Source of the DNA: Marsupella aquatica
Lineage: Eukaryota; Plantae; Marchantiophyta
DNA: 64,000 nt
Assembly (NCBI GenBank): GCA_973895155.1
Contig: OZ316893.1
Span: 16,894,645 to 16,958,644, forward strand
Reading direction: 5' to 3'
The position numbers were made by a program, and so were the translations under genes. This document shows positions 31,601 to 64,000 of the stretch, piece after piece (the stretch's first letter is position 1; each line of letters opens with the position of its first letter). The notes beneath the pieces were generated by a model. That model was given only the letters and a program-made list of their open reading frames with translations, did no database searches and was not told the DNA's origin.

Positions 31601-31866
31601 CCACAGCAGAGCCAGTCCATAATCTTCTATCATGGGAGGATGACTCGCAGGTATGTGTGGGTACAGGCATTTTGCGACCGGATCATGCAAAATTCCATGG
31701 CAAAGTGGTCCCGGATGACCATGTAGTAGTGTTGTTGACTACAATGATTGTATCTGATTGTAATTTGCCATTTCCGAATAGAGACGATGATCCACCTCAG
31801 GAAATAATTGCAGATGCAGTAGGATCTCTTGTGCTCTGGCCATCAGAGTGTGTTAGTCTGCAGTGA
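28696..31866 (+). CDS. CACTA TnpA-like multi-exon gene (Ptta/En/Spm-like core, Tnp1-like C-terminus), probable 1-bp frameshift near 30015
   Basis: Many small GT-AG exons. The core reads QWTRLIKGFMSEAGQSKSELMSNARGKVKHLHRLG, with RGSYAP in a shifted frame. The C-terminus reads FHGKVVPDDHVVV...LPFP...DAVGSLVLWP. Confidence 0.75.
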
Positions 31867-32293
31867 CTGAATGCAAGTGTAGATAGCATCATGTGAATTG
31901 TGTCACATTTTGACATTGCCTTGGAAAGATCCAAGAAATATCTGTACCAATTTTTCCATTTGGTAAAGAGGATGAAGGAGACGTTGTGTGTGACATTGAT
32001 ATTTCTGAATTCTGTATGTATGAAACAAGTGATTGATGTCAAACTATGGCTCTATGGTGATTGTCTATGATACTTGAATCTATTTTATCATTTCAGTATT
32101 AGTGTGTATGGTATAGAGGAATACTTTGTGACCTTCTTTGTAGTCTATGAAATTTGAATCTATGAATTCATATTAGTGTACATGGTATAGAAGATGGCTT
32201 TCTGAAACTATGTATTCTAATGTTAACATGATGAATGGTGAACTTATAGAGTGAGTTCATTCCAAGTACACAATAAAACATGAATGCAATATG

Positions 32294-35244
32294 TGTTGTA
32301 ACTCATACTTGAGTTAAGTCTACCTTTGGGATAACTACCTATGTAACTACCCTAACTACTTAGGCCGTAGCCACATGTACATATTCTACCAAGAGTAAAG
32401 ATGGAACCAACTCTTTGTCTCATTTCTCCCACAACACGTTATCAGCACGAGCCTAAGACTGGCTGAATTTTTTTTTAGGCCATGACTGATTCACTCTAAG
32501 ACGAAGAAAGAAGGGAAAAGACGTGATTCGAATGTGCCAAAGTTTTTTTTGCGAGAGCTGCTTGAAGCGCTGCACGAGCAATTTTTCTTTGGAAGAAAGG
32601 CCAAGGAAGAATTGATCCCAGCTATGGTGAATTGAATATCAAGGCGCCATCTTATTCGGTGCACGCTTTTCAAGTCAGTATAGCAGTAAGGCAATAGCAA
32701 CAGTCAGTCAGAGCCAATGTTGTTGACGCGTTCACAAATCTGGAAACGAGCCAGCGATTGGAACTCCAGCCATTTCGAGGAGTCGGAAGTTGGTGGCCAA
32801 GGTGTTTTCTCACTCCCTGGCGAGCAAGACCCTCACACCAACTACATCTTTTATTGATAAGATTTCTAGCGAGCACCAGCTCACTGACGGCTGGTCGTGA
32901 GCGCACAACAGATTGGAGTACGACAACCTACTCTATTTCCTGTGTTTGCTTCCAGTTCTACTCGAGTCTACCGCTGGAGGCATTCGAAATGGACGAAGCA
33001 GTAACAGGATGTTGTGATTTCTTTCCCGACACTACGCTTTCCCGACACTATGCTGACAGAAAAGCAGGACAAACATGGGGAAATTAAACCCGTTGGTCGC
33101 ATCACTGGAAAACGAAAGAAGGATTTGGAGCAATCGCGTAAGAAGTGCAAAAAGAAGCAAGTGAAGAAAGTCGCGACTTACAGACCATAGAAAGTAGCGA
33201 CCTCCACTTCAGGCAGCGAGATCATCACACAAGCAAACCGATCCAAGGCGCAGATCACAGCCTCAATTCCATAAGGAACTCGTAAGGATAGCAGGAGATA
33301 AGGAAATTTTTCTTAGAAGATTCGAAGAGAACTCAAGAAGAAAGCAGAACAGAACGGAAGTCTATCCCCAACCGAGGATCACAAGATTACATTCTTCGTT
33401 AGTCATTGATGAGTCTTTTGCCCTTCGAGAGTAACCGATCTTGAAAAGCAGCATTCCCCTCCAGGGTGAAAAGGATAAGAAGAGCAAGACGACAGCAATA
33501 GAGAGAAGACGATCGAAAAGCGTAGGCAGGTCCCGTGAATTACCCTCATTCGCCGTTGCCCCTTCTGGAGAGCAACGATGGGTTTGTTCGAGAGCAGCTG
33601 GTACCCTGAAGGAAGATGATAAAGAAGAGGAAACCGAGCTACTGGATGCTCTAGTTTCTAAGCCGTACTGCGATGATGACGGCCTTTCCTACCGGCATTC
33701 TCACCAGACTTTACTATGTTGATGGAGACACCAAGAGCTTGATCGACTTTACACATCCATGACAATGGAGATTGAAGGAAGATTTCACATTTAGGGAGCA
33801 CGAACAAAAGACCCTCGGAGAAAAGAGGATAAGAGCACGAAGGGAACGCGCGCAGCAAAGAACAAATCTCGCAACAAAAATGCTGAAACGTCGAGAAAAC
33901 GTCGAGAACATACCGCTAAGTGCAAACCCTCCTTAATTGCAAAACCCGTCAAATAGATTTGCGTATACAAAGAACAATGTGCACTGAACCAGGGAAACAC
34001 ACATACTAAGAACGGGGACGAAATGGCATTAAAATGAAAGATATCTATTGGGAATATTACCATATAAGAATTGCCATTCACAAATTCAGGGGGAGAATTG
34101 TTTTTCCCAACGTGCCTACTGCACTTAAAAGTTAAGCTCCGTGCCTACTACACATGGAAGCCAATGAGTGCCTACTGCACATGGAAGTAAATGACAAATT
34201 GAGGGGGAGACCTCAAGTAAGACTTGACATCAAGCAATGTAACCCATGGGATGTGCCTATTGCACAAGTGCCTTTCGCACCAATGAATACCTAAAAATGG
34301 AACTCTATTCCATGCATATGGCAAATCATGAAATCTAAGGAATTTTTATAAATGATTGAATATGGTGTTAACACAATCACTTACCAATACTTGATGAGGT
34401 ATACTGGATATTAAAGTACCATATGATAATATGAGGTACAGTACCAGGTCATAAGGTACCATAAGGTGAGACATGGCATGGTAAGGCACCATAAGAGATG
34501 GTGCGCCATACCCCAATATGATAACCCTACGTTGTGGATATGGTACGTGATGTGGTGCAAATAGGTTATGCCCACACCAAATCTAGGGTTGGACACCCAA
34601 TCCAATTCCAAGGCCATGGATTACACCATATCATCTTCGTTTTGTACTAATACTTTACTTTGTCATGGCATGTAATCGGTGACCATCAAGGAGTCTCCAT
34701 TTCCAGATTGGAAGGAGACACGAGAAACAATCAACCAAGGAAGATCTTCAACAAGCCTATAGTGTTGACAAACACCTTAAGAGACTTTGTAGAAATTACA
34801 CATACACTATATTCTTAAACCCAATTATGTTACACCCATGGGGATGGTAATACTCTTTCCTCCCACAAAGAAAGTAGGGGAGGTTTTAATGAGGTTACAT
34901 CCCCCACTTACACTTTACCATGCAACATGAATTATAAGACATCTATTAGGAGAAGCTTGACATTCATTTATAGTAGACTTGAGATGGCTACACCATTTAT
35001 AAAATAGGCTAGACATAAACAAAACCTATTGTATACCACTGAATATACCCAAAGTAGACTCTTGATTGTAACATTTCAACCCCAATGTTACAAAGGGGGA
35101 GTGTTGTAACTCATACTTGAGTTAAGTCTACCTTTGGGATAACTACCTATGTAACTACCCTAACTACTTAGGCCGTAGCCACATGTACATATTCTACCAA
35201 GAGTAAAGATGGAACCAACTCTTTGTCTCATTTCTCCCACAACA
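32294..35244 (+). mobile_element. Non-autonomous Bianca-type LTR element (2951 bp) with identical 143-bp LTRs
   Basis: LTRs 32294-32436 and 35102-35244 (TGTTG...CAACA) are identical by eye. TSD ATATG is on both sides, the PBS is CGTTATCAGCACGA, and the PPT is AAAGGGGGAG. No gag/pol is present internally. Confidence 0.95.
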
Positions 35245-35817
35245 ATATGTTATTTGTGCACAAGAGTGGGTTCATTCCAAGTAGTATAGTGGGGTCTTCA
35301 TCACTCATATCCAGTTGACATGAAAGACTTATACATACCCCACAAAGTATATTTAAAGACTACCCTCCATAACCTTTTTAGTCGTTCCCAACGACTCATC
35401 ATCGCAGCCCATAAAAGACTAAAAACGACTCACCAAAGCTACCCACACAAAGACTAAAATAGACTGAAAATCCAGTCTATTAAACGACTTATAAACCAGT
35501 TCTATAAAGGACTCAGTTGATTATAGTAACAAAACATACGACTCGCAGTCCTATAAAGGACTAGAGTCCTTCCCAGTCATTTCCAAGTCCTATACGGTAC
35601 TGAATAGTCGTTTAATGGGGTCTAAATACCCCCCGGTTTCTACTAGTGCCCTAAATTCAATGAAATCATATGGACATGTTACAAAAAAATATATGCAAAC
35701 ATATTACAATTTTAACATAATACACCACAAATATATTTCCAGTATACATAACTAATATCTAATGTTTGACAAAAATATTAAGAGAGGATGGTTAGTAAGG
35801 TATGTAGGATCAATCAC

Positions 35818-38561
35818 CTGAAATGCCTCCCTTGTGTCCACATTATTGTCCTTGATGTTACAATTCTCAAAGGACCATGCATAATGGTACGGACATCATC
35901 TGTGATGGTTGGAAAATGTAATATACTCTCTCCCCTGGCCACCATGTCATCCACCTCAACTAGCTTTGCCTTCATATAGTCATGACACTTGGGAAAGATC
36001 CTTGGCCTCCGACTGTTACTTTTGGCCTCTTCATAGAAGTTCCTCCATTCTTCCATGATAGTGTTGTTACTCAACATGAATGTACTCAGTTGCTTCAACT
36101 CCATGGGTGTCAACATGAGGGTTTTGGTGGCCCCTATCAAACGATCCACCTCATCCTCCCTCTCCTCCTTCCAAGTACGGGGAGAGGTACAATCTATTGT
36201 GGCTAATATGTTGTTGCAATAAAACATACTTTCTGCTGCCAAATATCGTGTAGCCATGCTTCCCTCAACTCTTGCACGGTTTCGTACATATCCCTTTAAA
36301 ACTACATGTACCGTTCCAACCAATACATCCACCGACAATGCACAGGACCCGCAATGGCAACCTCATGAACAAGGTGAACAAGTAAATGCACTTGACAATC
36401 AAAAAAGGAAGGAGGGAGGGCCTTCTCCAACTTGCACACCACCTCTGCAGCCAATACCTTCATCCCTGGGATCTCCTCACTATAAATCTCCTTTGAGCAT
36501 ATCCATCTCAACAATTTTCCCAATGACCAAAGGGCATCTTGCACTTCTTCACTTGCCAAACCTATTATTGCCATGGGCAATATATGTTGCAATAGTCGGT
36601 GGTAGTCATGTGTCTTCAAATATCGTGGCCACTTATGATTGTCCTCCATCCCAAAAGCCTTTCAAAGATTGGCTCCATAACCGGTAGGAAACCTCATGTC
36701 TCCTATGCAATTTTGAAACTCCCTTCGTTGTCCAACAGGAAGGACCCATGGAGCTGATGGTCGGTGTTCTATCCCTGTGACTGGATCAGTTGTCACCCAC
36801 ACATCTGGATGCATCTCAAGATCCTCACAAGCCTCCCTGAAGTTAGTGTCCTTCTCTCCATAGAAAGCTTTTATCAATGCCTTTCCCAGATTCCCCTCAA
36901 TGTGCATGGGATCTAATAGATGAAGAATCTTCAATTCTCCCCAATAGGGCAAAGTGGCTAGAATACTCCACCTTGTCAACCCACTACCCTCAAACTGCAT
37001 GGGATCCTCAGGGTCAGCCACTCTATCAGCCAAGTCTTTTCAGTGTGCAAAAGTTGTTGGCTCAGGTACTTCACGCTCATCACCAAGCTGCATATCAATG
37101 GAGGAAAATAGAAGTGGATCAAACCTCATTGCATGTCCCATTGGGAGAAATTTTGTATGCCCAAGATAAATAATCTTGTGAAGGTGCGATGAGTACTTGG
37201 CTATATCACCAAGGCCTGGGCCACAAGTGGAGCAAGCTTTGTAGCCTTGGGTTTGCAACCCACTGACAAAACCAAACCCTGCCAAAAAATACACCAGCAA
37301 ATGATTGTGTTATGATTGACAAAGAAAAGAAAATAATACCATGCATCCTCATATGATGGAAATTAAGTAAGTAAGTACTATAGTGTAACAGTTCTTACCT
37401 AGATAGTCATGCATGGTCCACATACAAATCCCTTTTAGTTTGAAAACCCGTGATAAACCCTCTGTAATCTTTCGACCATCATATGCCCATACTCCCTCCC
37501 ATAATTTTTGGAGTTCCTGAACCAGTAATGCCATGTAGGTGTCCATGTTTTGCACCTTCTTTGGCCCTGGGATAATCAAAGATAACAACAAAAAGCCCTT
37601 TTTCATGGACAACCATGGTAGAAGGTTGTAATTCATGAGAACCACTGGCCAAACCAATGTAGGCCTCCATTCCCCCCAAGTGAATGAGGGCTAACCCCAA
37701 TCGCACATGCCGAGGGTCACGCTCAAAATCTGGCCATGTTGACTCTACATGTTTATGAGCAGGAGAGTCAACTGGTAATCGCATCACACCAGGCTCTGAA
37801 CGATGCTTCTTGTGCCATACCATCAACTCGGCCAAGTCAGAACATCTATACATGTGCAACAAGCGAGGAATAATGAGGAACCAACAAACAACTTTCCTTG
37901 GCACCTTCTGGGTTAGCATGTTTGGCTCATACCGTGGCTCATGACACACGGTGCATACTGTGACATGGGCTTTGTCCCCATGAAATAACATGCAATCATT
38001 CACACACGCATGAATGATATGGTAATCCATGCCAATGGATGAGAGAATCTTCTTTGCATCCTTCTAGGTTCCTGGCAACACATTCTCACTAGGTAACATC
38101 AGGTCATGACAATATTCAAATATGTCTGATAACATAGAATTGCTTGCCTTATGTTTAGCCTGAATGTTCAACAACCCCAATATGGCTGACAAACGACTCA
38201 ACCGAGCACCCTCAAAGATAGGTGTTCGGGCATGTTCCTCAGCCTCCTTCCATTGTTGTTGTCCCTCTGGAGTATGTTGTGGTCGTGGGTCATTTTGGGG
38301 GGCAGCTCCTTCAACACTAATGTCAGGGACACCATCCCCAACATCAGCACCAAACCAATCAACCATGAAGTCATCCATGGCTCTGTCTTGGTCATGCATG
38401 ACCTGGTCATCAGTTCGGGGTGTCTCTTCCTCATCAACATCACTTGGATTATTACTTGACGAGGAATCAACATCTGATGGTTTTCCTTCTTTTGGCATAC
38501 CCATCTCCCGATATGCTGCCCTCAACCTTCGTGGTAACATATGTTGAGAGGGTTGCGCATT
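35818..38561 (-). pseudogene. Main exons of CACTA B TnpD/Tnp2 transposase, disrupted
   Basis: IHACVNDCMLF, DPRHVRLGL, WPVVLMNYNL, DPMHIEGN, LKTHDYHRLLQ and RWMYWLERYM occur across ORFs 35814-38540, with several stops and frameshifts. Confidence 0.93.
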
Positions 38562-38800: not shown

Positions 38801-39631
38801 CTAATCCCACTCATAGTGTGTGAATAACTCATCGCCAGCTCTAATGGTCCTAGTAGCAAGAACTAAGCAATGGTCCTTATGATATCTCTCACCATATGGT
38901 GCCGACATTGGACCATCAGTAAAAACCCACTCACAATTGGCCCTACGCTTGGGCCGAGTCCCCACAGTACTATTTATGAAGCCAGCAATATTCCCATTAC
39001 GTATGGGGTCACCGTCTATCACTCGCTGTTCACTATACCTTCTAGTGCTACCATCAAAAGTATCCATCTCTAAGGCATATGTTTTCCACTCAGGATGTTG
39101 TGCAAGGATCATGTTCCAGTGTCTTCTCTTGTAGATGGGTCCACCGTATGGGAACAAAGTAGGACCCTCTCTACCACAAACACTTGACCCACTCACATCA
39201 TCCACAATGATGTCCTCACAAGCAAAAACCCCATAGCCATGTCTCTCTCCAAGCGTCGAAGCCTTCACAACCCAACGTCTACCCCAAACCACAACCTCCT
39301 CATCAAAACCGATAAAATATGGCAAGCCAAGAGTTGAGGCATCCCACATCTTGATGATAGAAGCACACTTGCCAGTGAACTCACATATACCCCACCTACC
39401 CTCAACAAGTGTTCTGGATGGGTCAGTGGGCGCTCGTGGCCTCCTCCTGGACTCGGGCCTGGACCGCGGTCTTCGTGTCCCACTAGGCACTTGAGGCTAT
39501 TCCTCTTCTTCCCCATGAATGGTGCTCATCCCTACACCCAAGGCTTGTGAAAGTGCATTTCCTATAGCATCTAGAACCCCTTGTGATGGGACATAGGGTG
39601 GTGGTGTCACCACTCTACGCATGTTGGATCC
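38801..39631 (-). CDS. SET-domain (lysine methyltransferase-like) exon inside CACTA B, one in-frame TAG at 39497-39499
   Basis: SET motifs: STLGERHGYGVFACEDI (motif I), LFPYGG, IDG...NIAGFINS (RFxNHS-like), ANCEW, and ATRTIRAGDELFTHY (ELxxxY). The acceptor TAG at 39634-39632 is in frame with ORF 38801-39490. Confidence 0.85.
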
Positions 39632-41039: not shown

Positions 41040-41790
41040 TGGGAGGGTCGACGCCCAGCCCCTCCAGGTGTCATCCCTCGTTGGAACGACATTGATTGGG
41101 TCAACCTCCTCTTCTTTGGCTTCTCCTTGCCTCCTTCTCCCTTGCTCGGCTGGCTTCCTTGGTGCCGCCGACCTCGTTCTCTTTGTGGGGGTGGCCTCTT
41201 CGTTGTTGGGCCCCTTCCTCTTCATGGCGGCTGCTGTGGACGTTTCTCCAAGCATGGTTGCCTTTGTTCACGCCTCCGTGCTACCCTTTAGGTCCCAATG
41301 TATGTCATTGCAACGGTTGATGGCTTCTCTGATGCCGACGGTTCTGTTCACACATAACAGAAGGTCGTCAAGCTGATTGGCAGTAGGAGTCCACAAGAAC
41401 TCGGCCTTGATGAGCTCTCCTCCTAGGAAGGCAGACTTCAGCTCCCATAGTCAAGCGAGCTCTTGCCGTTCTCGTGCTGCCCTTTCTGATTCCTCATCCT
41501 CATAGGTCCCAATGTACTCAGTTGCCCATTTGAACAGGCATCCCCAGAAATGAGCAACTTGATTGACATTGCTCATGCCCACCTTGAGTCGATGCTCGGT
41601 ATCTGCTCTCGCCCAAAGTGCTTGCCTAAGCAGCTGACAGTCATTGGCTTCTTGCATCCTCTGCTTGGTCAATGCTCGCAAATGAGCCGCCATTCCTTGT
41701 GAACGATCCTTACCCCCCTGCCTGGTTGATCTTCCCATTGGTTACCCATAGCCGCCGGCACTTAGCGCGCCCTAACCCTAATCGCGTTCC
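41040..41790 (-). pseudogene. Copy 1 of a retrotransposon accessory-type ORF, left arm of a head-to-head inverted duplication
   Basis: The peptide KVGMSNVNQVAHFWGCLFKWATEYIGTY is shared with 42000-42266 (+). Confidence 0.7.
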
Positions 41791-41964
41791 TTGCCGTAGC
41801 GCCCTTACTTTTGGCCTTGGCTAGGGTTCCATAGTCACCCTTGATTGTTTATATTTTCCTTTTTTTGTTATTATACTAATGTGTTTTCAGGGTACACTCC
41901 CGGTTTTACCACTTTAACTGGCCTAGTGATTCCTGGCTAGGCATCACAACAGGCAACCACAGGG

Positions 41965-44900
41965 CACAATTAGGGTTAGGGTACGCTAAGTACAGGTGGT
42001 TGTGGGTGATCAACAAACAGTCAGGCAACGGCAGCCAGGAGGGGGGTAAGGACTATTCACCAAGGGTGGCGGCTCATTTTCAAGCACTGATCAAGCAGAG
42101 GATTGTAACGATTGTCAACTGCTTAGACAAACACTCTGGCAAAAGCAGATACAAGGTGGGAATGAGCAACGTCAACCAAGCCGCACATTTTTGGGGATGC
42201 CTATTTGAACGGGAAACTGAGTACATTGGGACATACAAGGAGGAGGAGAGAGCAGCCCAAAAATGATAGGAGCTTGCTCGGCTGTGGGAACTCTAGAAGT
42301 TTGCCTTCCTCAGAGGAGAGCTCACCAAGGCTGAGTTCTTGTGGACGCCTACTGCTGACCAGCTCGACGACCTCCTGTTTTGTAAGAACAGAATTGTCAA
42401 CATCCGGGAGGCCATCAACCGCTGCAATGACAAACATTGGGACTTAAAAGGGTTGCACTAAGGCGCGGACAAAAGCAATAGTGCTAGGAGAATTGTCAGG
42501 AGCGGCCAAAATGAAGAGGAAGATGACCAACAACAAAGAAGCCACACCGGCCAAGAGAACAAGATTGGCGGCATCTAGAAAGCCGACCGAGCAGGGAAAC
42601 CCAAGATAGGAGGAGGCCGAGGAACCCGATGTATCAAACACTTGTCAAGGAGCTTAAGTGACTTTTCTCCTAAAAAACTACCTAATACCTGCTCCATGTC
42701 ATACCAGGGTCACAAAGGATTGACAAAACTTATGAAATGTGCTTGCAAGTTCTGATCAGACCATATATAAGTAGTTTCAACTCTCTACTTCTAGAGAGGT
42801 AGTCCCCGCAACTACTTTTGGACTCACCCACCTCCTCTCTCTACTCCAAGGAGTAGCAAGGGGGATATCCATTCTAAGCTATCACCTTAGAGTAGACCCT
42901 CACAAAACACCCAAGAACCCAAAGTACTTTCCTCTTCAAGCTTAAGCCCCCCTTAGACCCTCAAAGTAGTGTTACCCTTTAACCTTGCCCCCTAGCCTTG
43001 ATTTGGGCCCACACTTCCCCTATTAGCTCTTAGAGATAACTCTTCTCTCTAAGGACTCTTCATCTTGTTCTCACACAAGGCAAGGTACTTTCCACCCTCA
43101 AGAATGATACAATCTTCTCTAAGTCCCAAAGTAGTGCTCCACCTTAACCTTGCCTCCCTGGCCTTGGTTGTGTACCAGCACATCCCCTTCAAGCTTAGAC
43201 CAAGATTGTACCCTAACATGGACTCTTCTCTTGCCCTTATACACTTCAAATTCCCTCACACTTAATGGTCACAATGAAGATTGAGAAGACTCTTGTCATT
43301 GCATACTCAATCCTTACAACAAAAGATCTTCTACAAAATCCTCACACTAAGTATGGACCTCACCTCCTTCTCAAGCTTAGCCCCAACTTAGCAAGGTAGA
43401 GCCTCTACTTTGAGAACTTTGAATTCTGGTCCCTAACAAAGGTAAACTTCCTCATTATATACTATTCTCCTTCCACACCACACCAAGCTTGACCTGGGGT
43501 CCAACTATACCTCCCCAAGTCCTCATAACACACAAAGTCCAACTCTATAGTTCATAGCCCACTCTACAACCTGTTGTTTTGACTCCTTCCAAGCCCTGGA
43601 ACATGCCACACATGATTTGCATGTTTTGACCTCCAAACCTGCTTTCACTTATGGTTCTCCTTACCAGCTTTCCAATTCACTTGAAAGCTCGCAAAAAGAG
43701 TGAGTGAATCTCAAGTTATGCCTAGTCAAAGTTGACCTTATTTTACTTATAACCCTTTTACTACCCTAAGTAAACTACCCCATATACTTACTTCTCTTAA
43801 CTTGATGGACTTACCTAGAGCCTAACTAAAGTGGTATGGGTGCGAGAAAGGTCAGTCCCTAAATCTGGTGTTCATTCCTCTATGTTGGCTCCGATTTGCA
43901 AGATATTGGGACCCCCTCTTGGCCTTGGCTAAAAATATATTTGGGTGGTTCTTTTTCTGGGTTTCCACCTTCACCAAGGGGTGCCTCACCTTCCCCTAAC
44001 TCAGCACAAAATATTTGGGCCCCGACAAATACCCCTAGCCCAAGTTATGTCCGTTTTCCCAAGGTCTTTATTTGTGAGTAAGTAACCTTCCGGTTTTTGT
44101 TTTAACCAGGTCCGACTGAGCTTGGGTTAACCCAAGCCTAGGTTAACTTAAGTAGATGCTATGTGTCAGGATGGGAGGACTCCAAGATTTACTCACGTTT
44201 CTTATGAAGAATTTGATAAGGACATCAATTTTTGTAGTCATTTTCCTGTCTTGAATTCAATCTGAAATGGCAACATTCTCTATTGGATTCAAATGGCAGC
44301 AGGTCAATCGATAGCTCAGCCAGGTTTGCAGCAGCCTTCTCAATCCACCTCAAGCCATCCAGCCTTGCAGGTGATTCAAAATTGCAGCAGAATTTTGCAG
44401 TAGCCATAGCCCACCAATTCGCAGCTAGCCCTCTTTCTTCCTTGCAGCTGGTCCTTACTGATTCACTATTACATTCAATCAATTTGCCAACAGCCTAGCT
44501 CTATTCTCCAGCAGCCAGCCATAGCTTGCCCTTCTCAATGTCGTAGCTAGCAGAGCAACAACACTATTGAGCTTGCAACATGCTTACTAATTAGTTAGCC
44601 ATCCCTTTTTTTTGCAACTCAGCCAGCACTTAGCATCTCGCGCTTGAAGCTAGCCCTCTAATTCTTGTGCAGTAGCCAGTCTGATCAGCCGCCAGCCCTT
44701 CAATTTCGTAACCCACCATAGCTCACAGCCAGCCAGCCAACTCTTGATCAACAATAGTCCATTTTCTCCATAGCAAGTAGCTCAATTCCAATCAGCAGCA
44801 TCAAGGCAACCAGCCAAGTCTGATCAGCAGCATGTAGCCAGGTCAATTCAAGCGGCTCTTCCTTCAATTCAGTCGCCCTTGTGCTCAATTGGCACCTCAA

Positions 44901-47223: not shown

Positions 47224-48043
47224 GTTTTTTTGTTTGTTTTTTATTGAAACCCGCAAAAACCCACGAGAAGGGGGGCCCAACAGGGCAACATAAACATGGG
47301 CAGCATAGTGCAACCTAGGTGAGACCAAAATGAGCACACAAGTGCAAAGGCACAAAGAAGTGTTCCTAGCCAACTAAAGTAGAATGCATAAGCAAGTATT
47401 GCTTCAACTAGAAAGCCATGCATCCGGATGAGTGACCCACCTAAGACGTTCCTGACTGACTAATTCTTTGACTTGCAGTAATCTAGTATGTTTTCTACTA
47501 GGACCCGAGGCTTCACAAAGGCCATGCAAGGAGTCTAACATATCTGAAAGGAGTAGATTCAGATTAAACCTTCTACTGTTGACACGATTAAAGAGCTGCT
47601 CATTCTGTGCCAGCCAGAGAGTCCACAGCACGTGGTAAACCACAAAGACCCAAATGGTTCTCTCAATTTTGGTGCAACCAGTGACTTCCAAGACAGAGAA
47701 TAAATTCAAATGTCTCCAAGAAGTGACACCCGGAAAAGTCCACCCAGCCAGCTGCCAGCACCTCTTAGCGAAGGGACATGTGAAGAAAAGATGAGGAATT
47801 GTTTCAAGAACATTGGTGCACAGTAGGCAGCTTCCATCTCCTTTACCAATCTTTCTAGCTCGTGTTCTAGTGAATAACCCTTGAGCAGCTAATCTCCAAA
47901 GGAATAAGCGGCCTTTTAACGGTAAATCAGATGACCATTAAGCATTCCAGAATTTGTTCCATTCAAGGTCAGAAAAAGAAATGCTCCAAATCCCGTTAAG
48001 CCTCAAAGAATCAGAGCCTTTCGGTCAAATCAGATGATACATA
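47224..48043 (-). mobile_element. 3' end of an L1-type LINE (zf-RVT region, polyA-like tail), cut by a CACTA insertion
   Basis: Translates to CLLCTNVLETIPHLFFTCPFAKRCW (CCHC) and VLWTLWLAQNEQLF. An AATAAA plus A-rich tail lies on the minus strand at ~47224-47245. Confidence 0.85.
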
Positions 48044-48979
48044 CACTAGTAGAAAATGGGGCCTTTTATGACTATGACTGTCACGTCGTCGGCTTCGGCC
48101 TTAACTCAGACTTCAGCTTAGACGGGCACATCCCTCGTAAATCTGAGGGTTCGGGCAGGAAGGGAAGCACATAATGCACCTTATTCTCGTAAACTAGCGC
48201 TAAGTGCGCATACTGCTAAATACGGACACCTCCTAGGTATGGTTTGTGTTCCGCCGCCGGAACGTACCTTAGTTGATAGCAGGATCGACCCCGGCTTAAG
48301 GGCTTCTAAGCCTTCGTGCTGTCCGCCTTCGATCCGGATTCGATGATACAGGTCCTCAACCCGTGCTCGCAACCACTTATCCGTAGGCTGCAGCCTGTGC
48401 ATGTCTCGGGTAGTGCGTTTTGCCTGGCGCTGCCACCCATATACGAGAAACCCACACACATACACGCGCACATGCATACAATCTCGATTTACACGAAGGA
48501 AAATGATGGGAAAGGATTTTACTACAAAGGGAACATATGCGTACACTTAGTTGACCCGACAGCCCCGGAATGAACAGGTTCAAGGCCGAGGGTGCACACT
48601 ACAACGAAGCCCGGCTCCGCACTCGCCCGACGAGCTTAGTCCTACCCCCCCCCTTGGTACTCTTTCATTCCCAGAGGTTGGGACTCCCCGCATATACCGC
48701 GGACGTCCAACTCTGAAACTAAAAACAACCCCCCCTTGCCTCTACCGAGGGGTGCACTAAATACTAAGGGCCGAGGGACGGGGTGTCCTCTCGCCAAAGA
48801 TTCGCTGACTAAGGTCCTAACTAAGCTGACAGTCAGGCCGGAAAATGGCTGTGTCTTATTAGAAGATCCTAATCTACGCAGGCTAGACAGCATGGCAGCG
48901 CTGGTGTACCTAAGGCAGGTGCCTGTCCCAAGAGCCTGACTAAGCTAGTCCTAATCCTAATCTATTCCTACTCCGCTGC

Positions 48980-51564
48980 TAATGCCTGGCACGCTTGCCA
49001 GAGCCGCCCGAATGGGAGCGGCCATCCCGCTGCCTTCGAAGCCTGTCATTGTCCACCTTGAGGAGCTGGACCTGGTCCAGCAGAGATTCATTCTCTCGCC
49101 TCGCCGCGTCCATCTCCTCTGCTGCCTCTTGACATGCCTCCTCCAGCTGCTGGGCGTCGCTTGTCAGTTTACCCGGCAGCTGGTCCTACTTCTCGGCCTC
49201 GGTTTGGAGCCGTGCCACCTCGGCCTGCAGCGTGGCTATCTCCGTCGTGTCCCGCTGGGCCCGTTCCTCGGCCTCCTCCAGGTCTTTGTGCTAGGTGACA
49301 GTTTGATTCTTCAAACTGTCAATCTGGTTCCGGAGTCGTGTAATCTCGGCCTCGTTCCCAGCTTTGGCCTGTTCGGCTAGGGCGGTAAGAGCGTGCGCCT
49401 TTGCTAACAACTCATCGGCGGCTGCAACCTTGGGTTGTAGTTGCACAAGCTCAGCCTCTTGAGCCGCAACTTTGTTCTTTAGGTACACGGACTCCACCCG
49501 GTACCGCTCTATCCTCTGAAGGGCCTCTGACTGGGCCCGACCTACCTTTACTGCGGCAACCAACTCCTGATTGAAGAAACAGGCTACCTTCCCGGGCCAT
49601 GAACTCCCCGGTATCCCGGGCAATTTGATGAGAGAAATCTCCCATAAGCCCGTTCAGAAATGTACCCGGTACGAAGAGTTCCGGGTGGTCCAGGTTGTGT
49701 CTGTCCAGAGTTGGGCACGGGCAGACGTCAACACGCGCGGGGGCCGGGGCAGTGACGTCCAGCCCTGGGGACGTAATGTTGGAAGGGGCTGGAGTGTCCT
49801 CCTGCAGCAATGTCCGATTCTCTGGAATAGCCACCGGTGGGTCTTTGGGAGACCCGGGCTCGGGTAAGACCTTCGCCGTACCAACTTCTGTACTTAGCCC
49901 GGCTTGTTGGGTCGCATCAACAGTTCCGACAACCGACCCATCCGGTACCTCCTCGGTTACGACTACAGCTACTTGTGGAGGTGGGGTGGGTGAAGCTGGC
50001 GTGTCCGCTGGACTCCGGGCCTCGGGTTGGGGCCGTCTCTCCAAGGCCGGGAAAACCCACCTAGCTAGGACCAGCTTTGTAACGTTGACACGGGGAAGGG
50101 TTCGTCGATCAAACCGGGCGTACCACTCAAGAATGATCTCGATGTGGCTAGCGAAATATGCCTTCCCGCCAATGTACAACGTCTTCCTTCGCCGCTCCAT
50201 CTCTTCATGGAATTTCTTAGCGAAGTACGACGCCCACTTCCTAGGTCGATAGTTCTCGACCTAGATAACCTGGGCGGCGGAGATCTCCCCCCGGGGTTCC
50301 ATCATGTGGAGGGCGTACCTCTGGAACTCCAGTCGCTCAGCTATCTCAGGGATGAGGCAGGTCCTCATCACGAACCCGTTGTCCACTGCTCCCTCTGAGG
50401 GAAAACTTGAAGATTGGTACTTGGCTCCCTTGCCCCCGGGAGCCCATGATTCGACTCGATGGTCACCTTCGGGTAACCCAAAGATCATCCTGAGCCGTTC
50501 TTCCGTGAGGGACATACTCCTTCCCCGCAGCCGAGTATGTTGACGCGTGTCGTCATAATTCCTGACGAACTCCGTCATGTCCTCCCCGTAGTACCTGCAA
50601 GTGTTCCAGGGGAGGGAGGCGAGGTGCTCGAATCCCTGAGTCTTCAGGTACACCGCATGTTTGGGATGGAGGATGTTTTTGTGAACGTTTTCCCCCATGC
50701 GGTGCATCGTCACCTTGGCTACGGCTACTGTGGCCAACGGTAACCCGGATGCAGTGGCGGATTCCTTCCTCTTCTTCCCCCGTGACTGGCTCGGGGAAGG
50801 TGACACTTCCCCATCCTCCCGATCGGGCCTGGGTAGTGCCACTGCCGTTAGTACAGGCCCGGGGCGGCCACGGTCACCATGTTGTCTGCCGGGGCCGCTC
50901 CTGGGGTCAGAGCAGGGGGTGGGGACAATATAGTGTCGGCCCCCTGAGCGCTTGTTCCTCTGGGCCGCCTGGTCAAGGGTGGGGTAGCCTCGTCGTCATC
51001 GCTAAGATCCACAGCATTGATGACGGAGCGTACTTGTGCTGGCTGGGCGATTGGTGGTGGGGTTTGGCTAGGCTGCGGCTGAGGCTGAAGCTGAGCCTGA
51101 GGTTGAGCCTGAGGTTGCATGGGTACAGGTACGGGTACGAGTACGGGTTCGACTGAGTTGGTCATGTTGGTTGATGGCCGAGTTCCCATGAAGCTCTGTA
51201 GGTGCTCGTAGAAGTTCTCCAAAGCGAGTGCAGACAACCTTGTCAAACGGGTAGTGCTGGACTCGCTGTTGATGATAGCCCGAACCTGAGCAGGGATGTG
51301 GTCGAAGTGATGTCGTTGCAAGTCGATCGTACCCGGGATATTGAAGACCTTGTCCGGAAGCCGAAGCAATGCTTCCCAGAAACCGATATATTTGTCTCCG
51401 TTGAAGAAGTACCCAGATACCTCTATTGGTTGGTAAAGCTCGCTCTGAGACGGGTAGTCAAAGTTAAGGATGTAGTGGTGTCGTCCTGCTAGGCGGATGG
51501 CTCTCTCGTACTCGCGTTGGATTTCGTATCGGCGCGGGTTGGCGTGTTTCAATGAGTCGGCCAA
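48980..51564 (-). pseudogene. Long degenerate ORF (~850 codons) inside the solo LTR: plant-transposon-protein-like domain plus C-terminal coiled coil
   Basis: ORFs 50848-51564, 50261-50842, 49451-50200 and 49291-49623 are linked by frameshifts or TAG stops. They include GFEHLASLPW...MTEFVRNYD...RLRGRSMSLTEERLRMIFGLPEG and heptad-rich EAEITRLRNQIDSLKNQ. Confidence 0.75.
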
Positions 51565-51734
51565 GTGCCTTCCGGTAGATAGGAACTGCGTCTAGAATCG
51601 AATGGCCGAGCTGGAGAGGATCGTGTACGACATTCAGAGGATATAGTAGTGGCGACTTAGAGCGAACGAGAGAGCTGGGGTCGAAGCTGGCGCGTGGACT
51701 GATGGACTGGTGCACTACAAAGGGTTGGCTCCCC

Positions 51735-51741
51735 TTTTATA
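51735..51741 (-). promoter_or_regulatory. Putative LTR TATA box (TATAAAA) ~170 bp upstream of the LTR-borne ORF
   Basis: GGTATAAAAGGGG on the minus strand, ~360 bp from the LTR end. Confidence 0.5.
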
Positions 51742-53586
51742 CCTTGAGGGCTTGTCGATCCCCCAACGTCTCCTCGACGCCCATAGGCTGAACCGCTCAC
51801 GCTTGTGGTGTACCGGCCACTCCGCCGGTCTGAGTCAGCGCGTGTCAGTGGCCGCTTCCTTAAGTTCGTTATACGGACCCGAGGGAGGGGCCCCTCCACG
51901 CTCGTAACCCGAGTGTGCGAATAGCGACCCGCCGCCAGTCCGAACCTAAATTCCCCCTTATTGCCTAATGATGTCCTACCCATAATGATTACCTAAATAC
52001 TGTCATTATGCTAATAATAGCGGCCTAAGACACTCCTAATGCGCGTGCTAAGCGCAGTTAGACCGAATCACTCATTAACCGCCGTACCGGCGGCGTCACA
52101 ATGACACATATGACTTATGTGCTCAAATGATAAAATATGTAAATGACATAACATAAATGACATTGAAATGACTGTCCAAAATGACGGGGTGCAAAAAATG
52201 ACTAATACTTGCAATAGTGTCATTTAAACCAATGAGCCAAATGACTTTGACTGCTATAATGACAACAATCATGAGTTGTAGTCATTTTGGACAGTCTTTG
52301 TGAATGACACAATTAACAAAAACTCTGACATATCAGTGTTTCACATATGGGAAGTCATTTCAGACAACTGTGACTAATGACTAATAAATCAAATATGCAA
52401 ATATCAGTGTTTAAAAATGTTAGTAGTCATTTAAACCAAAAGTGATAAATGACATGATAAACAACATATGACTATTTTGAGGTTTATGGTTTAGGGTATG
52501 ATTAGTCATCCAAAATGTATGGTAGTATATATCGTGGTACTAGTGGCACTCACATATTAGATTTGAAATACATTTAGAGACCTAACAAGCCTTCTTTTGT
52601 TGTGAGTCTCATCATTAAATTGATGTACAACTTAAGGCTTGATAATCTCTAATAAGTATGTACATTTACATATACTTGCACCCATTCATTACAACTTTCC
52701 TATATATGCCAAGGACTCCTGAAGTGTTTACATTCCTTAAGCTGTATTCACATTTCACATGTTGGAGTATATATGGGGGCATGCAAGGTTGCCAAATAAC
52801 ACTCTCGGGCATAGGTCTAGGGTTTAAGGTTTAGACTTTAGGTACTACATGCCTATATTTGCTCATGTCATTTTTTTCAATATATTATTCATGTTATTTG
52901 CAAAGGATTCCCAATCATTTTTGCTCTCACTCAACTTTCTAGTCATTTGACAAGTGCCGCTAGATGTCATTTATGCAAATGTCATTTGGGATGTCAATGT
53001 TGTGGTCATGTATGTCATGCAGAATATGACTCTTAAGAGCTTTTGGTGGCTGATTGACCCCATTGGTGATAGGGGCCGGCCATTAAGGATGATACCCACT
53101 TCACATGGTGCGGGATAGGGTACTTGACAACCGTGGGCCACTGGTTATGCCATTTGGCCTCCACAACACTTTTTAAAATACACATTTTGCATCATGGAAG
53201 GGCATCACCCAACTTTGGGCAAAACATTCCCAAGTTGTATGACTTTGGAGTCATTTGCCCAAAGGGGTGCAAATCATTCTAATTTGGTCATTTGCAAGGG
53301 ATCTTGAGTCATTTGTGCGTGTGACTAAAGGTTTTTGTCATTTGTGGAGTGCCGAGGGGTGTCATTTAAGCAAATGACACAAAAATAAGTCATTGATGAT
53401 GTCAATGCGGCAGTCAAGCATGCCATGGACAATATGACTCCTTGGGGTCTTTGGGGGCTTATTCACAATATACGTGATCGTAGCCGGCCATTAGGGATGC
53501 TACCCACTCCACATGGTGCGGGATGGGGTACTTGTACACCCTGAGCCACTAGTTATGCCCCTTGGCCTCCACAACACTTTTTCCGA

Positions 53587-57372: not shown

Positions 57373-59257
57373 ATTTTATCTCAATAATTGATATTAGAGT
57401 TTGTATCACGAGTGGTAATAGTTTGGGAGTTTTTGATGGTTGATTATTAGATATCTTTGGGATGCTAGGGACTGTAAACAATTAAAATCAAGGAGGTAAT
57501 TAACATTGTTGTTCTACTGATGAGAAATTTGCAAATTTTATCAAAAAACTATGCACACTAGATCAAAAAGATGTGCCATTTTGCATTCAACATTTTCTAA
57601 TTGGTTTTGGATGGTTTGTTTCCATTTACTGAAAGAAGTGGGACTTTGATTGCTCAATTCAAGATTTTCTTGATTTGTGAACAACAAAATGGATGCACTT
57701 GAATGGGATGGTGCATCATGTATCACAAAGACAAGTGCACTTTTCATTTTGCTTTGAAAACCGAAAGCAGACCCATCCAAAAGAGGATAGACGTCCTGCT
57801 CTGGAGCATGCATTTCTATGTAGGGCAGCCACAAGGGGACGATACCCAGGGATCCGACAAGGACCCAGACCAGGAGGGAGAGAGTATTAAACCAGAACCC
57901 CAAAACGGCCAACCAGGGGCTAAGAGGATAATCAATACCCCCACCATTGCACCCCACCCACACACATACCCTCCACATCCCTTGCATGTGGAGGGAGGAT
58001 TGAACCAGAGGAAACAATTCACTTTTGATGTAGTTGAATGGAATGGTGCATTATATTTCAGCAACATTGACCGGCTTGGAAGCCATAGCCGAGCATAAGG
58101 CAGCCGGCCATACATGCACATTGATGATATCAGGATGAGTCGTACCAGATCGTGTGGGAGACTGAAGTGGTTGAAAGGAGAAAACCAGGCATGAAAGACC
58201 CCACAAGAAGAGAACAATTTTGTGGAGCTTTTGTCCCAGTACCCGTAATGCACATAGCCTTGACAAAGCTGTGGTTGCCATTGTGCATGACACAAGTCAA
58301 ATTTCTTAAAATTGAGAATATTTCTTACGAATGTTAAAATGGGGAGTGTTCCCTTTGCATTTATGTATGCCAAGATTCCAACTCTCAGTACCATTACAGG
58401 AGTTCTGTTCAAAATTTTTGCCTCCAAGTATCTGAAACACTTTGCTCATAGTGCACCATCCAACCTTCAAAATCCTATCCAAGCAAAAGGCTTGGGATGA
58501 CAACTTGTAATAAGATTCTACTTTGGCAATTACTTGTGGAAGTCATCGGACAGAACGACACACTCAAAATTCTCAGTAGGCTATGACACAAGTCCCACAA
58601 TTTTATATACTGGGTGTGTCGATATTTTCCAGTAGCACTTGGAAGCTGTCGGCCAGAAGCGCTTCGCACATGTTGAAGAAAGTTGAACACAACATTGCTT
58701 GACAATCTTTGAAGTTTACCAAAGTACTGGAATCCCTGATCGACTGGGCAAGCCTTTCTGATCAACAACTATCGAAGAAGCCTTACCTTAAACTTCGTTG
58801 CTCTTATTGGCTTGGGTAGCCGCTAAGATTCCTCTCAGTTGGAGACCCAAGAAATTGAGAGAGCGGAGAGAGCTCAAGTTGGTCTCTCTATTGTTTTTTT
58901 GCATTTGCGTTCTTTGATTGTTCAGGTTTTAGATTTTTGGGAAGCACGTCATTGGTCTCATTGGATTCAGGAGGATCAGTGCTTAATTCATCCCGATACC
59001 TTTTGCAACGCTGTACGTAGCAATTTGACTAACTTCTGATCAATAGAGGAAGGAAGATGCTGTAGCAAATGCTTTGCTCTTTATAGTCTCAACATTGATC
59101 TTTGTCACGGTCTTCTGGATCCTTTGCGCTTCTCTTTACCGAAGTGACATTGCACTATGGATTACAATTGGCGCTCTAGAATGGACAATCATGCATATGC
59201 TAGTTGTTCCCTTGGTTGGCTGCTTCTTTTGGAATAGATTTTGATAGGAATCGGTAT

Positions 59258-60896
59258 TGTTGAGCATAGACGACACTTGTAACCATAAGCACATGACACA
59301 TCCAACGTGCAAGTAGTCGACACAAGAGATACGTGGTTCACCTCCTCGAGGCTATGTCCACGGGAACACACAAAAGAGCTTTACTAAACTCTAAGCTCGT
59401 CGGCCATACCAAGTCTCCATAGTGTAAGCTCTCATCATCTCTCAAGTGGCTCCATAACAATGAGCCTAAGTTCCACTTATCCAAGAAAACACCGCTTGGC
59501 ATATAGTGTGCATCCTAGTTAACCTAACCACGTCTGCGACTATGGTTAGCCTAACTACGGTTACATGTCGTAACCCTAGACCATGAGTAAATACCTAACA
59601 ATCTCCCCCTTGACTCTGGTCTAGGTGAAGGTAATACTGCTAACCTACATGATTCCTCAGCGGGAAATTCTGGACAAAAACCAACATGGTTTCCCCTCTC
59701 TAACTAGAGCAAACCAGAACTAAGCCGTAGTCTATTACTAGGAGTGAAGAAGAGCATATATATCAGTAATTACAGCGAATGTTAAGAAAAACCCTTGTGA
59801 CACAATTGCAAAACCTGCAGCATGTCACGATGTCTAGAGAAACTTTCCGAAGGAATCACTTTGGTAAATGCGTCAGCTGGGTTGAGTTTACCGTCTATCT
59901 TGACTAGCTCAAACAAATTATCAGACACAACCTGCCTGATAAAATGGTACCTGACGTCTATGTGCTTCACTCTACTGTCCATCACTTGGTTCACAGCAAG
60001 GTGGAGTGCACTTTGACTATCACAATGGAGCTTCACATTCCCCTGTGGCAATCTCATTTCAGTGATAAGTCTATCCAACCAAATCGCTTCCTTTGCTGCT
60101 TCCGTTGCTGCAACATACTCCGCTTCTGTAGTAGATTGAGCAATACACTTTTGCAAAGTAGACCTCCAACTTATGCATCCACCACCAAGTGTGAACACGT
60201 ACCCTGTTGTTGATCTCCTTCGGTCCAGATCTTGTCCATAGTCAAAATCTACATAGCCAATCAATGATCTCACATTCTTTGCATTTGCATTTGCATCAAA
60301 TAAAAGACCATGATCCACGGTACCCTTCAAGTACCTGATAATCCACTTCACTGCTTCCCAGTGTACCTTCCCTGGATTCCACATGTACCTGCTCACCTTG
60401 CCCATAGCCATGGCAAGATCAGGTCTAGTGCAAGTCATCAAATACATTAGACTTCCCATTGCCTTATCATAAGGAACCTTTGACATCAGCCCCTTCTTTG
60501 TCGCATCTGTGGGACAAAAAGCTGATGACAATTTGAAGTGTGCAGCCAAAGGGGTACTTACTGGCTTACTATTCCCCATGTTGAACCTAGCAATTACCTT
60601 CCTCGCATAATTGCTCTGTGTCAACCATAGCTTACCAGTCTCCAAGGCCCTAGTGATCTCCATACCCAAAATCCTCTTAGCTGGCCCTAGGTCCTTCATC
60701 TTAAACTCTGCACTAAGTAGTGTCTTAAGCTTAACAATCTCAGACCTATTCTTGGCCGCAATAAGCATGTCATCCACATAAAGTACTAAAACAATGAATC
60801 CAAAGACAATATTCTTCACCGATTTTAAATATACACAAGGGTCAAACACACTCCTGTGAAAACCTTGTGACTGAATCCAATCATCAAACCGCTTGT
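59258..60896 (-). mobile_element. 3' part of a second Copia: RT/RNase H (59782-60896), PPT and 3' LTR (~59258-59600)
   Basis: YVDD, TEAEY and KHIDVRYHF motifs. The PPT AGGGGGAGAT is followed by TGTTAGG on the minus strand at 59600, and a candidate far end TGTTGA lies at 59258. Confidence 0.88.
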
Positions 60897-62204
60897 TCGG
60901 GGTATTTACAAAAGATAGGAACCAGGAAATAGTAACAGGAAATAGTTACTATTACCAGAAGAATTGGAGGTAAAAACCAAAAACATCGGACCAAAAAAAG
61001 GATTCCAAACAATCAAAATTAAAGCCCATTTGAGTCATTTTCATTAAAACCGTCTCATTCCGGAGGAAATATCCCATCGGGTAGTCCGACCCAAATTTGC
61101 GATGATTACCAGCGCCCAGCGCTGGTATCAATGAAGCGAATGGAAAGCTTGTAGGGTTTCATAGAAGAAGGGAAAAGTCAACAAAAATCTAAGTAACCTC
61201 AATCGAGAAGACAATGAGCGGCTTAAAATGAGGCAATTCAAATCAATAGAGACAGGGTCATACAACAACAAAATCCGGATCTCGTTGCTAGCTTAAACCT
61301 CAAAATCCCAAAATCCATGTTTAACAGCATCGAGAGGAAAACCAGACATTGAAGATTGAGCCGATCCAAAATTCATTTACTTCAAAAATGGGCAAAAACA
61401 TATCATCGAGATTACATGGGCGACGGAAAGCAATGAGTATAAGTAGCGCCTGGCGCTAGCTTAAAACTACAAATCCCGCCCTTCCATGTGTAACGCCATG
61501 GAGAGGAAAATGGGTCGATCCAAAAAGCATTTCCTATCAAAATGAGCAAAAACATATTACCCAGATTACCAAATCCTAACAAAACAATCAGTACTGAAAA
61601 ACAGAGATGAAAAGCATCCAGCTTTAGCAGCGCTCGGCGCTAGCTTAAATATCACTACCTAGAAACCTAATCGCCGTAGGGATGCACTCCAAAATAACCT
61701 AAGCCCCTACGATTGGAACACCTTCAGCTCTGTGATTGACAGTCATCATCGACTCCCGCCCTCGCCCGCTTGTAGTTTCTCTTGAATCCTAAACCCCTAA
61801 GCCAAATATAATTCAAAGAGGGAACTCGATGCTCAGCATGAGCTTGGCCGTGGCCCGGAAAATTTGCATCAAGGAAGTCGATGCGCCCTAATCGCTCTTG
61901 CACCCGACGTTCAATGGGCTGCTGACCATCAGCAGGAACAACTTGATGAAACGAGAACCGATCCGCAAATTTGCGTGGAGTCTATCGGTCGCCAGTCCAC
62001 GGAATATTTCTCTCCCCAGGACTAATCGCCTCGTCGTAAGGAAGAGAATTACAGTTCCAAAAAGTTGATGTCTCGGTATTAGTGTCGACACAAACTGATT
62101 CGAAGGAGCTGAAGTGGCTCTCCACCGGTCGAACTTGGGAAGGACTGAAGAAGGCAAGCATCTCGTCCAACAACATTGGTTCCTTCCTCTCCATGTGGTC
62201 GCAC

Positions 62205-62380
62205 CCAGCTCGACAACGTCCACACGTAGCTCGACAACGTCCGCACCTTGCCTTAAGGTCCGCACCCAACTCGACAACGTTTGCACCTTGCCTTAAAGTG
62301 CGCAACCAGATCAACAATGTCCGTACCTTTATCGACAACGTCCGCACCTTTATCGACAAGGTCAGCACCTTTATTGACCT
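62205..62380. repeat. 21-bp-periodic minisatellite (TCGACAACGTCCGCACCTT)
   Basis: About 7-8 degenerate units, giving heptad-like peptides in the ORF track. Confidence 0.8.
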
Positions 62381-63226
62381 AGTGACTCCAAAAGGTTGAT
62401 ATAGTGACTACCAAAGGACGGTGATCGGTGGACACCCATAACATGCAAGCTTCAACGGGCAGAGGACCGTTGAGTAAATAGTCCAATCGCGACACGATTA
62501 TTTTGAAATAGACCCGACTTAATTACGTAACGACAATATACGAATGGCGACAGGATGGCAACAGAACGCATGAACGATATTATGATGTAAATGTTCAAGG
62601 AAAAACGTGCACATTTGGGGAGCGCCCGACGCTACTAAAGGAAGAGACCAATTTAAAACCTTTTATACAAGAAATACATGTATCTCGATAACAGTGCCAG
62701 GCGCTACTGAAGACAACAAGTGGTTTTTAGAATTTTATTATGAGCATATGAAATGAAATATATGTCCTTTCATAACAGCGCCCGGCGCTAGTAAAAGCTG
62801 GAAAAGAAATATACATAAATTATCGGTTTCTGATTGAGATTCCGATTCAGAGCTCTGTGATCTGTCGGTAGAGACTGCTTTGTCATCGACATACTTGCTC
62901 TTAGAAACGTCATCTACATACGGGTTTCTAACAAACTTTCTGTCAACTCCTCTTCGAAGGCGGATACCTTTGTTTTCCCAGCACAGAGTCCTTTGACTAT
63001 CCTCCTTTCTTGCAGCGTTCTCAGTGTAAGACGACAAAACAAATGGTTTCTCCGGTGTATCCATTTCAAAACGTGCAACTTTTCTTCTGAGTTGGAAGCG
63101 CTTTCTAGTATTCCATTCAGACCTGGGTAGATAACCAAGTAAGACAACCAATTGAAAGATACAATCAATAGCACAAAATGCATGAAGGAGCTGGAAAAGA
63201 GAAAGAAGCTTACAAGTTTCAGAACA

Positions 63227-64000
63227 TTACTCGGAAGAGTCATCGCTATCACTCTCGCCAGCAGATTGCTCCTTACCCCCCTGAGTTGTCTCCCCGTCCA
63301 CTTCATTTGCTGTCCCCCCACTTGACTCATCATCGGAGTCAAAATTAAGTACAGATCGGAGCTTGTCCCTCTTTTTCTTTTCCGGTGGTTGAATTGGGGG
63401 AGGCAAGGTTTCTACTTCCTTAGAAGAGAGTAGATTTAAGAACACCTTGGAACCAGTTTCAACGAAATCCTTCCGATTCTCCAGTCCAATTACAAACCTC
63501 CCAGAATAGTCTCCAGCTACAAAAGAGCTACCCGAACCAACTGTCCAATCTATGAAAATATCTCGAGGCCGAGTGATGAGCTCTATCACAGACTGCATGA
63601 ATCCAACCGACAAACGGGCATTCCCTACGAATTCCATCTCAGGTGTTGGATCTATATTGAGAGTGGGAAGCCCAATTAAATTAGTGATGGAGGGATCTTT
63701 TGTAACAGACAGAGGTCTAAACCTTGAGTCCTTGGGTACTTTCCCTTTCTGAGATACTCGGCAAAAGACGTCTAGCCTGAGCGTGAATATCTGTGAGATA
63801 AACCAAGAATGATATGTCATTCCATGCATTCATACACATTTTTGAGTGTAAAAAACAGAGATCACAACTTGGAATTTACTTGTCGGTCAGTCTTCGGCGC
63901 GTACATAGGAACTGACATAACAACATTGTGTGTGGAGATGCAATGAAACTTCTTTGATTCCTGACATGCGGATATAACCTGAGACATAGGATCGTACTCC
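63227..64000 (-). CDS. 3' exons of a spliced gene with an N4-cytosine/N6-adenine DNA methyltransferase-like (beta class) C-terminal SAM-binding region; 5' part outside the window
   Basis: LSVGFMQSVIELITRPRDIFIDWTVGSGSSFVAGDYSGRFVIGLENRKDFVE aligns to the N6_N4_Mtase consensus (L..LI...T.PGD.VLDPF.GSGTT..AA...GR..IG.E....Y). A phase-0 GT-AG intron at 63879-63791 joins an open upstream exon. Confidence 0.6.

Follow-up and report, generated by a model that had tools for sequence, protein, structure and literature searches.

The window analysed here, 64,000 nucleotides of DNA from the liverwort Marsupella aquatica, ends inside a methyltransferase-like (MTase-like) gene at the edge of a multi-copy repeat, likely a transposon of the Mutator type. 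The encoded protein is predicted to have the fold of the beta-class DNA amino-methyltransferases, is likely to be catalytically disabled and is likely to act as a DNA-binding helper; this reading as a whole is given a probability of about 0.5.

The window contains the 3' part of the gene on the minus strand, made up of three exons with 354 stop-free codons that are separated by GT-AG introns (Table 1). The three-exon product is collinear with residues 295-605 of the Calypogeia fissa protein P0058, with 38% identity over 325 columns (E 7e-55). We infer the splicing from this homology and from the splice signals, and the original prediction of a spliced gene is borne out, as intron 1 (phase 0) connects open exons across a junction that aligns to P0058 without a gap, and the relative locus L002 is interrupted by an intron at the identical place. 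The exon at the window edge matches the family profile at E 1.9e-11, in a profile that includes this very sequence. The third exon is 47% identical to the C-terminus of P0058 over 90 aa (E 2e-19), and in the locus L001 both intron 2 and the last exon are matched by alignment. The C-terminal domain, which is also present in P0069, has the consensus W..RF.LRxKV...PEK.F.L..Y.E..A...L.W...G.R..R and has no match in Pfam or NCBIfam. Since the third exon recurs in relatives and intron 2 in L001, the stop-like TAA (63227-63229) is part of the intron 2 donor site, and the reading of this TAA as the end of the gene was rejected. The gene that had been placed at 63227..64000 therefore stands, but not its limit at 63227, as it runs on to 62738 through intron 2 and exon 3. 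A short product may arise by retention of the 108-nt intron. Two codons that are otherwise conserved (63034 and 63025) deviate in this copy from what most contigs show, and no second copy of the gene is present within the 64-kb window.

Table 1. Features of the element end, its insertion site and the MTase-like gene (positions in the window).
Feature	Positions	Strand	Basis or remark
Copia RT-RNaseH, insertion target	59785..60898	-	PF07727 E 9.5e-20; uninterrupted Copia contigs run past 60898
Element terminus, starts GGGGTATTTACAAAAG	60899..61002	+	Terminal-repeat-like; contig flanks
Non-coding subterminal region	60899..62737		Multi-copy, internally repetitive, CpG o/e 1.03
Six interrupted palindromes AGCGCCNGGCGCT	61111..62789		At 61111, 61445, 61629, 62621, 62693 and 62777
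Tandem array, 21/40-bp units	62200..62378		Repeat analysis
Last exon	62738..63122	-	Conserved basic ~85-aa domain, then Ser/acidic tail and stop
Intron 2, 108 nt, GT...AG	63123..63230	-	Holds stop-like TAA 63227-63229; same intron in L001; exon continuity in P0058
Coding exon	63231..63790	-	C-terminal half of predicted beta-class MTase fold, then acidic linker; PF01555 E 1.5e-4
Acidic motif II residue	63479-63481	-	Sequence
Motif I DWTVGSG	63530..63550	-	Family consensus DWxxGxG vs bacterial DPFxGSG
Intron 1, 89 nt, GT...AG, phase 0	63791..63879	-	Homology and splice signals
Coding exon, open at window edge	63880..63999	-	Mid MTase-like domain; aligns to P0058 residues 295-334

The available evidence supports that the gene is located in multi-copy DNA that starts at the end of a transposon whose insertion interrupts a Copia RT. 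The multi-copy DNA ends sharply at 60899 (GGGGTATTTAC), which places the junction between 60898 and 60899; the abrupt replacement of the Copia RT that had been described at 60897 is thus confirmed in kind and corrected in position. The comparison was made with Logan contigs from four runs with two organism labels and from two studies. Before 60899, unrelated flanks were observed in at least 6, at least 6 and at least 9 contigs in three runs (agreement 0.45-0.52), and at least 4 and at least 3 further contigs leave the window at 60898; these counts are drawn from the 24 loose-end rows listed out of 76, and some loci may be represented in more than one run. The uninterrupted Copia contigs that pass the junction form a single continuing sequence (agreement 0.89-0.95). 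Summed contig depth over the gene, a value that is not equal to copy number, is ~30 to >100x that of the exact single-locus contigs at 58500-59314. In the first 35-100 bp of the element it is far higher still, as expected for a terminal repeat that is common to more elements. No contig spans the stretch from terminus to gene; the gene is tied to the end at 60899 by the continuous multi-copy depth and by a shared palindrome, AGCGCCNGGCGCT, which occurs both near the terminus and in the 3' end of the gene and is absent from two short relative loci. The idea that the gene is borne by a mobile element is therefore upheld by the sharp end, the many unrelated flanks and the multi-copy depth, and the proposed check of copy number and flanking termini yielded this depth and one terminus, at 60899. 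A host single-copy gene was rejected.

The element is likely a cut-and-paste DNA transposon. Among the superfamilies Mutator is the likeliest, with odds of roughly one in two, a call based on the terminal letters and on the termini typical of each superfamily. Mutator-like elements have terminal inverted repeats and a target duplication of 9-11 bp, and the single end in view has a G-rich start, ~100 bp of higher depth and no fixed flanking letters. No transposase is present inside the window's part of the element. PIF/Harbinger, Tc1/mariner and Kolobok/piggyBac elements use a fixed TWA, TA or TTAA target site; these were rejected, as the window flank ends in TTC and the flank consensuses end in AG, AT, AG or AAC. 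A CACTA/Plavaka/Kyakuja end, for which termini with 5'-CA (or TGT) are given in the available text of PMC12730594, was also rejected because the terminus begins with GGGG. A 10-nt likeness between the terminus and a nearby CACTA inverted repeat was discarded as well, since the flanks of 60899 do not continue as CACTA.

The wider setting is transposon-rich plant DNA with Copia, CACTA and LINE-type fragments. A CACTA element of ~20 kb (15664-35648) has the inverted ends CACTAGTAGAAACCGGGG and the target duplication CCC, and encodes, on the same strand, a Tnp2 transposase (24791-28518), an NSD-like PHD frame (21740-22255) and a twin BRCT frame (22918-23781), of which the PHD and BRCT frames are chromatin-type cargo. 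Inside this element, identical 144-nt direct repeats (32293-32436 and 35101-35244) lie 2.8 kb apart and are possibly a small, young LTR-type insertion. A degraded CACTA transposase follows on the minus strand (35814-38561), with a SET frame (38801-39496; PF00856 E 2.5e-6) just upstream on the same strand. Tandem arrays with units of ~578 nt and 83 nt occupy 1-2316 and 2565-3176, and a 52-nt near-palindrome in the 578-nt unit is found again near 53200. Nested long inverted repeats at 41140-42596, with arms of ~640 nt that are 75-84% complementary, are MITE- or foldback-like.

The block T.P.D..IDWTVGSG...GRFVIGLE on the minus strand corresponds to positions 164-218 of the 221 positions of PF01555. 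In the profile search that had been proposed as a check, the window exon matched PF01555 at E 1.5e-4 to 4.4e-4, although its 20.7-22.2 bits are below the gathering cut-off of 26.7; full-domain relatives score 18.9-24.7 bits and the fragment P0063 scores 28.7 bits. The best sequence matches among solved structures are beta-class, led by M1.HpyAVI (E 2.8e-4) and followed by CcrM, MboIIA and RsrI at E 0.7-1.9. For P0012, a relative with the full domain, the AF2 model (pLDDT 67) has a Foldseek match to CcrM (E 1.3e-11) and aligns to BceJIV, CcrM and MboIIA with Z 17.2-17.3 (VIA) and an rmsd of 3.3-3.6 over ~200 residues, and outside the beta-class and MT-A70 group Z remains < 7. A complete Rossmann core is present in this model, and in the Atlas P0012 is matched by clusters of PF01555 and by a single cluster without a name. 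At the level of the predicted model, P0012 is thus shown to have the beta-class amino-MTase fold. The model of the half-domain in the window is poor (pLDDT 56) and gave no structural match. Together, the profile match below the gathering cut-off, the M1.HpyAVI match and the fold of P0012 sustain the earlier assignment to a beta-class C-terminal block. The catalytic motif had also been expected N-terminal to this block; by profile alignment, motif IV precedes motif I in the relatives, as in the beta-class, and the portion of the gene in the window aligns in the same order with P0058 295-605. Descent of the gene from bacterial beta-class DNA amino-methyltransferases is supported, and neither N4C nor N6A ancestry is favoured for this gene family. 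Searches of phages and plasmids with tblastn gave only weak DNA-methylase matches (E 1e-3 to 7e-3), which point to no donor and allow no N4C/N6A assignment.

The motif I that had been called divergent is confirmed as DWTVGSG, and DW replaces DPF family-wide. The D of motif I is present in 45/47 sequences and the two glycines in 37/45 and 40/45. The column of the bacterial P holds W in 38/46, the column of the F holds mostly T, S or A, with no F among the listed residues, and the DPF signature occurs in 0/46 of the family sequences that span these columns. At motif II, the residue is E or D in 40/42. SAM binding may perhaps be retained, to judge from the conserved D..GxG and acidic motif II residue. 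The PTQKP motif of the bacterial enzymes is changed to GxxRxS, and DW and GxxRxSxGFMQ are conserved motifs specific to the family. In the nine relatives that reach motif IV, this column reads FLPN (n=4), CLPN, CLPS, ALPT, RLPN and DPPT, so that canonical (D/N/S)PP(Y/F/W) is found in 0/9, xLP[N/S/T] in 8/9 and DPPT in 1/9; SPPY is absent from all nine. The column was placed on the bacterial DPPF column by profile alignment (probability 75%, E 3.3e-6), and six of the nine sequences are from C. fissa, with at most four sources. In these aligned sequences the catalytic motif IV is shown to be lost. According to the available text of PMC8885841, N4CMT loses its activity when S and Y of SPPY are replaced, and in CcrM the first and the aromatic motif IV positions contact the target amine (PMC10406627).

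An active MTase with a rebuilt active site, which would bind SAM and, lacking the classical motif IV, transfer methyl groups to DNA or to some other substrate, would agree with the strongly conserved D..GxG and motif II, with the DW and GxxRxSxGFMQ motifs of its own and with the complete Rossmann core. However, motif IV begins with any of F, C, A and R and has N, S or T in place of the aromatic residue, at the two positions that are needed in N4CMT and that contact the target amine in CcrM, which makes such an enzyme quite unlikely. The motif IV of the window copy is predicted to lie ~140-150 nt beyond 64000, based on P0058 (motif at 246-249, window from 295). A canonical motif IV could thus be kept just outside the window, in a true transposon-borne 4mC/6mA writer; the tree without resolution, the DPPT of the Riccia relative and the putative N6A methylase described on red-algal transposons would fit with this. 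Against it, all six relatives that have both a DW-type motif I and a motif IV carry xLP[N/S/T], and the Riccia protein, on its long branch, also has no aromatic residue, so that we regard a canonical writer as most improbable. Because all six agree, the window copy likely has xLP[N/S/T] as well. Between the mobile DNA-MTase and the inactive derivative that had both been left open, the inactive derivative is favoured by the counts for motif IV (0/9 relatives) and DPF (0/46), while a mobile setting was rightly anticipated.

A search of 1.84 billion representatives yielded 57 matches at E <= 0.001, of which 51 are family-like, two are bacterial-type DPPF methylases and four are unrelated long proteins. 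Among the relatives with a species name, only the liverworts Calypogeia fissa and Riccia sorocarpa are represented; the seven C. fissa paralogues, several of them incomplete, are spread over scaffolds of six or more different sizes, which counts in favour of a transposon. The C-terminal-domain search found just two C. fissa proteins among 2802 candidates, and none of the 142 candidates from a word-indexed search with a single exon was a relative. No fusion to a transposase was seen, with lengths >793 aa covered by these two weak searches alone. No relative was present among 28 pattern matches in viral contigs or among 49 matches in prokaryote genomes, and metagenome contigs gave two relative loci among 255 matches, each of 1.1 kb and thus of insufficient length to reveal their surroundings. 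A tree of 26 relatives, from which 37 short ones were dropped, is largely without resolution, including the subclade of the window's protein. The R. sorocarpa protein P0042 is a distant member on a long branch; its motif IV reads DPPT and its motif I DCNLGYG, and it is possibly intermediate between the bacterial enzymes and the xLP[N/S/T] family.

The relatives are 40-60% identical and have conserved reading frames, intron positions and C-terminal domain; such conservation across many subfamilies with shared introns indicates long-term selection and a maintained function. This bears on the view of the gene as a passenger without a role for the element, either a captured host gene or a decayed relic in the style of a Pack-MULE. 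The incomplete C. fissa paralogues and the changed codons at 63034 and 63025, as in a decaying copy, speak for a passenger, but the 354 open codons, the intact splice sites and the selection on many subfamilies speak against it, and it is judged unlikely. The protein could also be the inactive partner of an active MTase encoded deeper in the element or by the host, in the manner of METTL14 and METTL3. Beta-class dimers divide tasks (PMC10406627), and the active-site motifs of METTL14 are disrupted within such a dimer (PMC4738411). However, no active paralogue was found among the 51 family-like matches, which are mostly fragments so that a distant partner could escape the search, or among longer proteins, and we consider this arrangement very unlikely.

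Instead, an accessory pseudo-MTase that likely binds the repeats of its own element is proposed by analogy with known systems. This helper reading is preferred because the family has been conserved for long, the catalytic residues are gone in the relatives and beta-class enzymes are DNA-binding dimers with divided tasks (PMC10406627, available text). An early plant lineage, or its transposon, would have taken up a bacterial or phage beta-class MTase, to which introns and a novel C-terminal domain would then have been added. The residues for amine binding and base stacking would have been lost, and D..GxG and the acidic motif II residue kept. As a dimer, like other beta-class enzymes, the protein would bind the CG/CNG-containing palindromes of the element, and the bound protein would help the element to escape 5mC silencing or assist its transposition, in the manner of VANC and TnpA.

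All six matches to AGCGCCNGGCGCT in the window are within 61111-62789, with a chance mean of 0.53 for a pattern that was picked from this region. The CpG o/e of the element end (0.93 with repeats masked) is high compared to 0.33 in the Copia RT; elsewhere, 119 overlapping windows have a median of 0.41 and none reaches 1.03, with some at 0.8-0.9. A GC-rich region at 48000-52800, with long open frames without a Pfam family, has a CpG o/e of 0.8-0.9. The high CpG o/e is a hint of low methylation at the element end; a high value could likewise reflect recent insertion or a promoter-like nature of the end. A broader proposal is that liverwort transposons made a bacterial amino-MTase into an anti-silencing protein, as a pseudoenzyme or a rebuilt enzyme, that binds or marks the CG-rich palindromes of these transposons and protects them from 5mC; this is put forward as tentative and is rather doubtful in this full form. 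If true, it would represent a VANC-like system on a restriction-modification scaffold.

In full-text searches outside subscription journals and repeat databases, no account of a beta-class MTase carried by a transposon of land plants was found, and the available parts of PMC12344493, PMC12513842 and 10.64898/2026.08.24.746577 contain nothing on this family. One of the closest settings is that of the red-algal PAG2, described as a PF01555 and SET accessory gene on Bostrychia Plavaka, Chondrus Mutator and Zisupton elements (bioRxiv 10.1101/2025.02.11.637652). Both cases present a PF01555 domain as an accessory gene of DNA transposons, and the chromatin modulation by PAG2 is, in the available text, also a proposal. 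Compared by description, PAG2 is a SET-fused putative N6A methylase, whereas the family here has a new C-terminal domain, a motif IV that is degenerate in relatives, and named relatives from liverworts, and no SET domain is present in P0058 or in the exons of the window. The MTase domain of the DIRS1 retrotransposon was likewise judged inactive from substituted catalytic residues (PMC4738411) and is also an amino-MTase domain on a mobile element. As far as described there, it belongs to the group-2 MTases related to PCIF1 and forms part of a retroelement polyprotein, whereas the predicted beta-class fold here is encoded by a separate spliced gene.

The family shares the predicted beta-class fold and the order of motif IV before motif I with CcrM, M1.HpyAVI, MboIIA, BceJIV and PvuII. 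Compared to the bacterial enzymes, the identity is 12-19%, DPPY, DPF and PTQKP are replaced, and introns, an acidic linker and the C-terminal domain are added. The liverwort DN4MT1a/b and the bdelloid N4CMT are also bacterial-derived beta-class folds in eukaryotes, and the P0012 model aligns to N4CMT with Z 15.6 at 12% identity. In their available descriptions these are low-copy host genes with (T)SPPY, TSPPY in Marchantia DN4MT1 (bioRxiv 10.1101/2021.02.12.428880), and with 4mC activity shown, whereas the present family is multi-copy and has SPPY in 0/9 relatives. The link that had been drawn to the N4C writers of Marchantia and rotifers is therefore not maintained. The family would be a liverwort bacterial amino-MTase lineage apart from DN4MT1 in motif and copy number, and PF01555 matches in bryophyte genomes are not in themselves evidence of 4mC/6mA writing.

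The VANDAL protein VANC (PMC5735166) and the CACTA protein TnpA (10.64898/2026.08.24.746577) are described as binding short motifs that are repeated in the non-coding DNA of their elements. They serve as a working analogy without kinship in sequence or fold, in which binding and hypomethylation are proven for VANC and TnpA and would apply here by extension. Few transposon counter-silencing proteins have been proven (VANC and TnpA), and the present family is a candidate that is testable in Marchantia.
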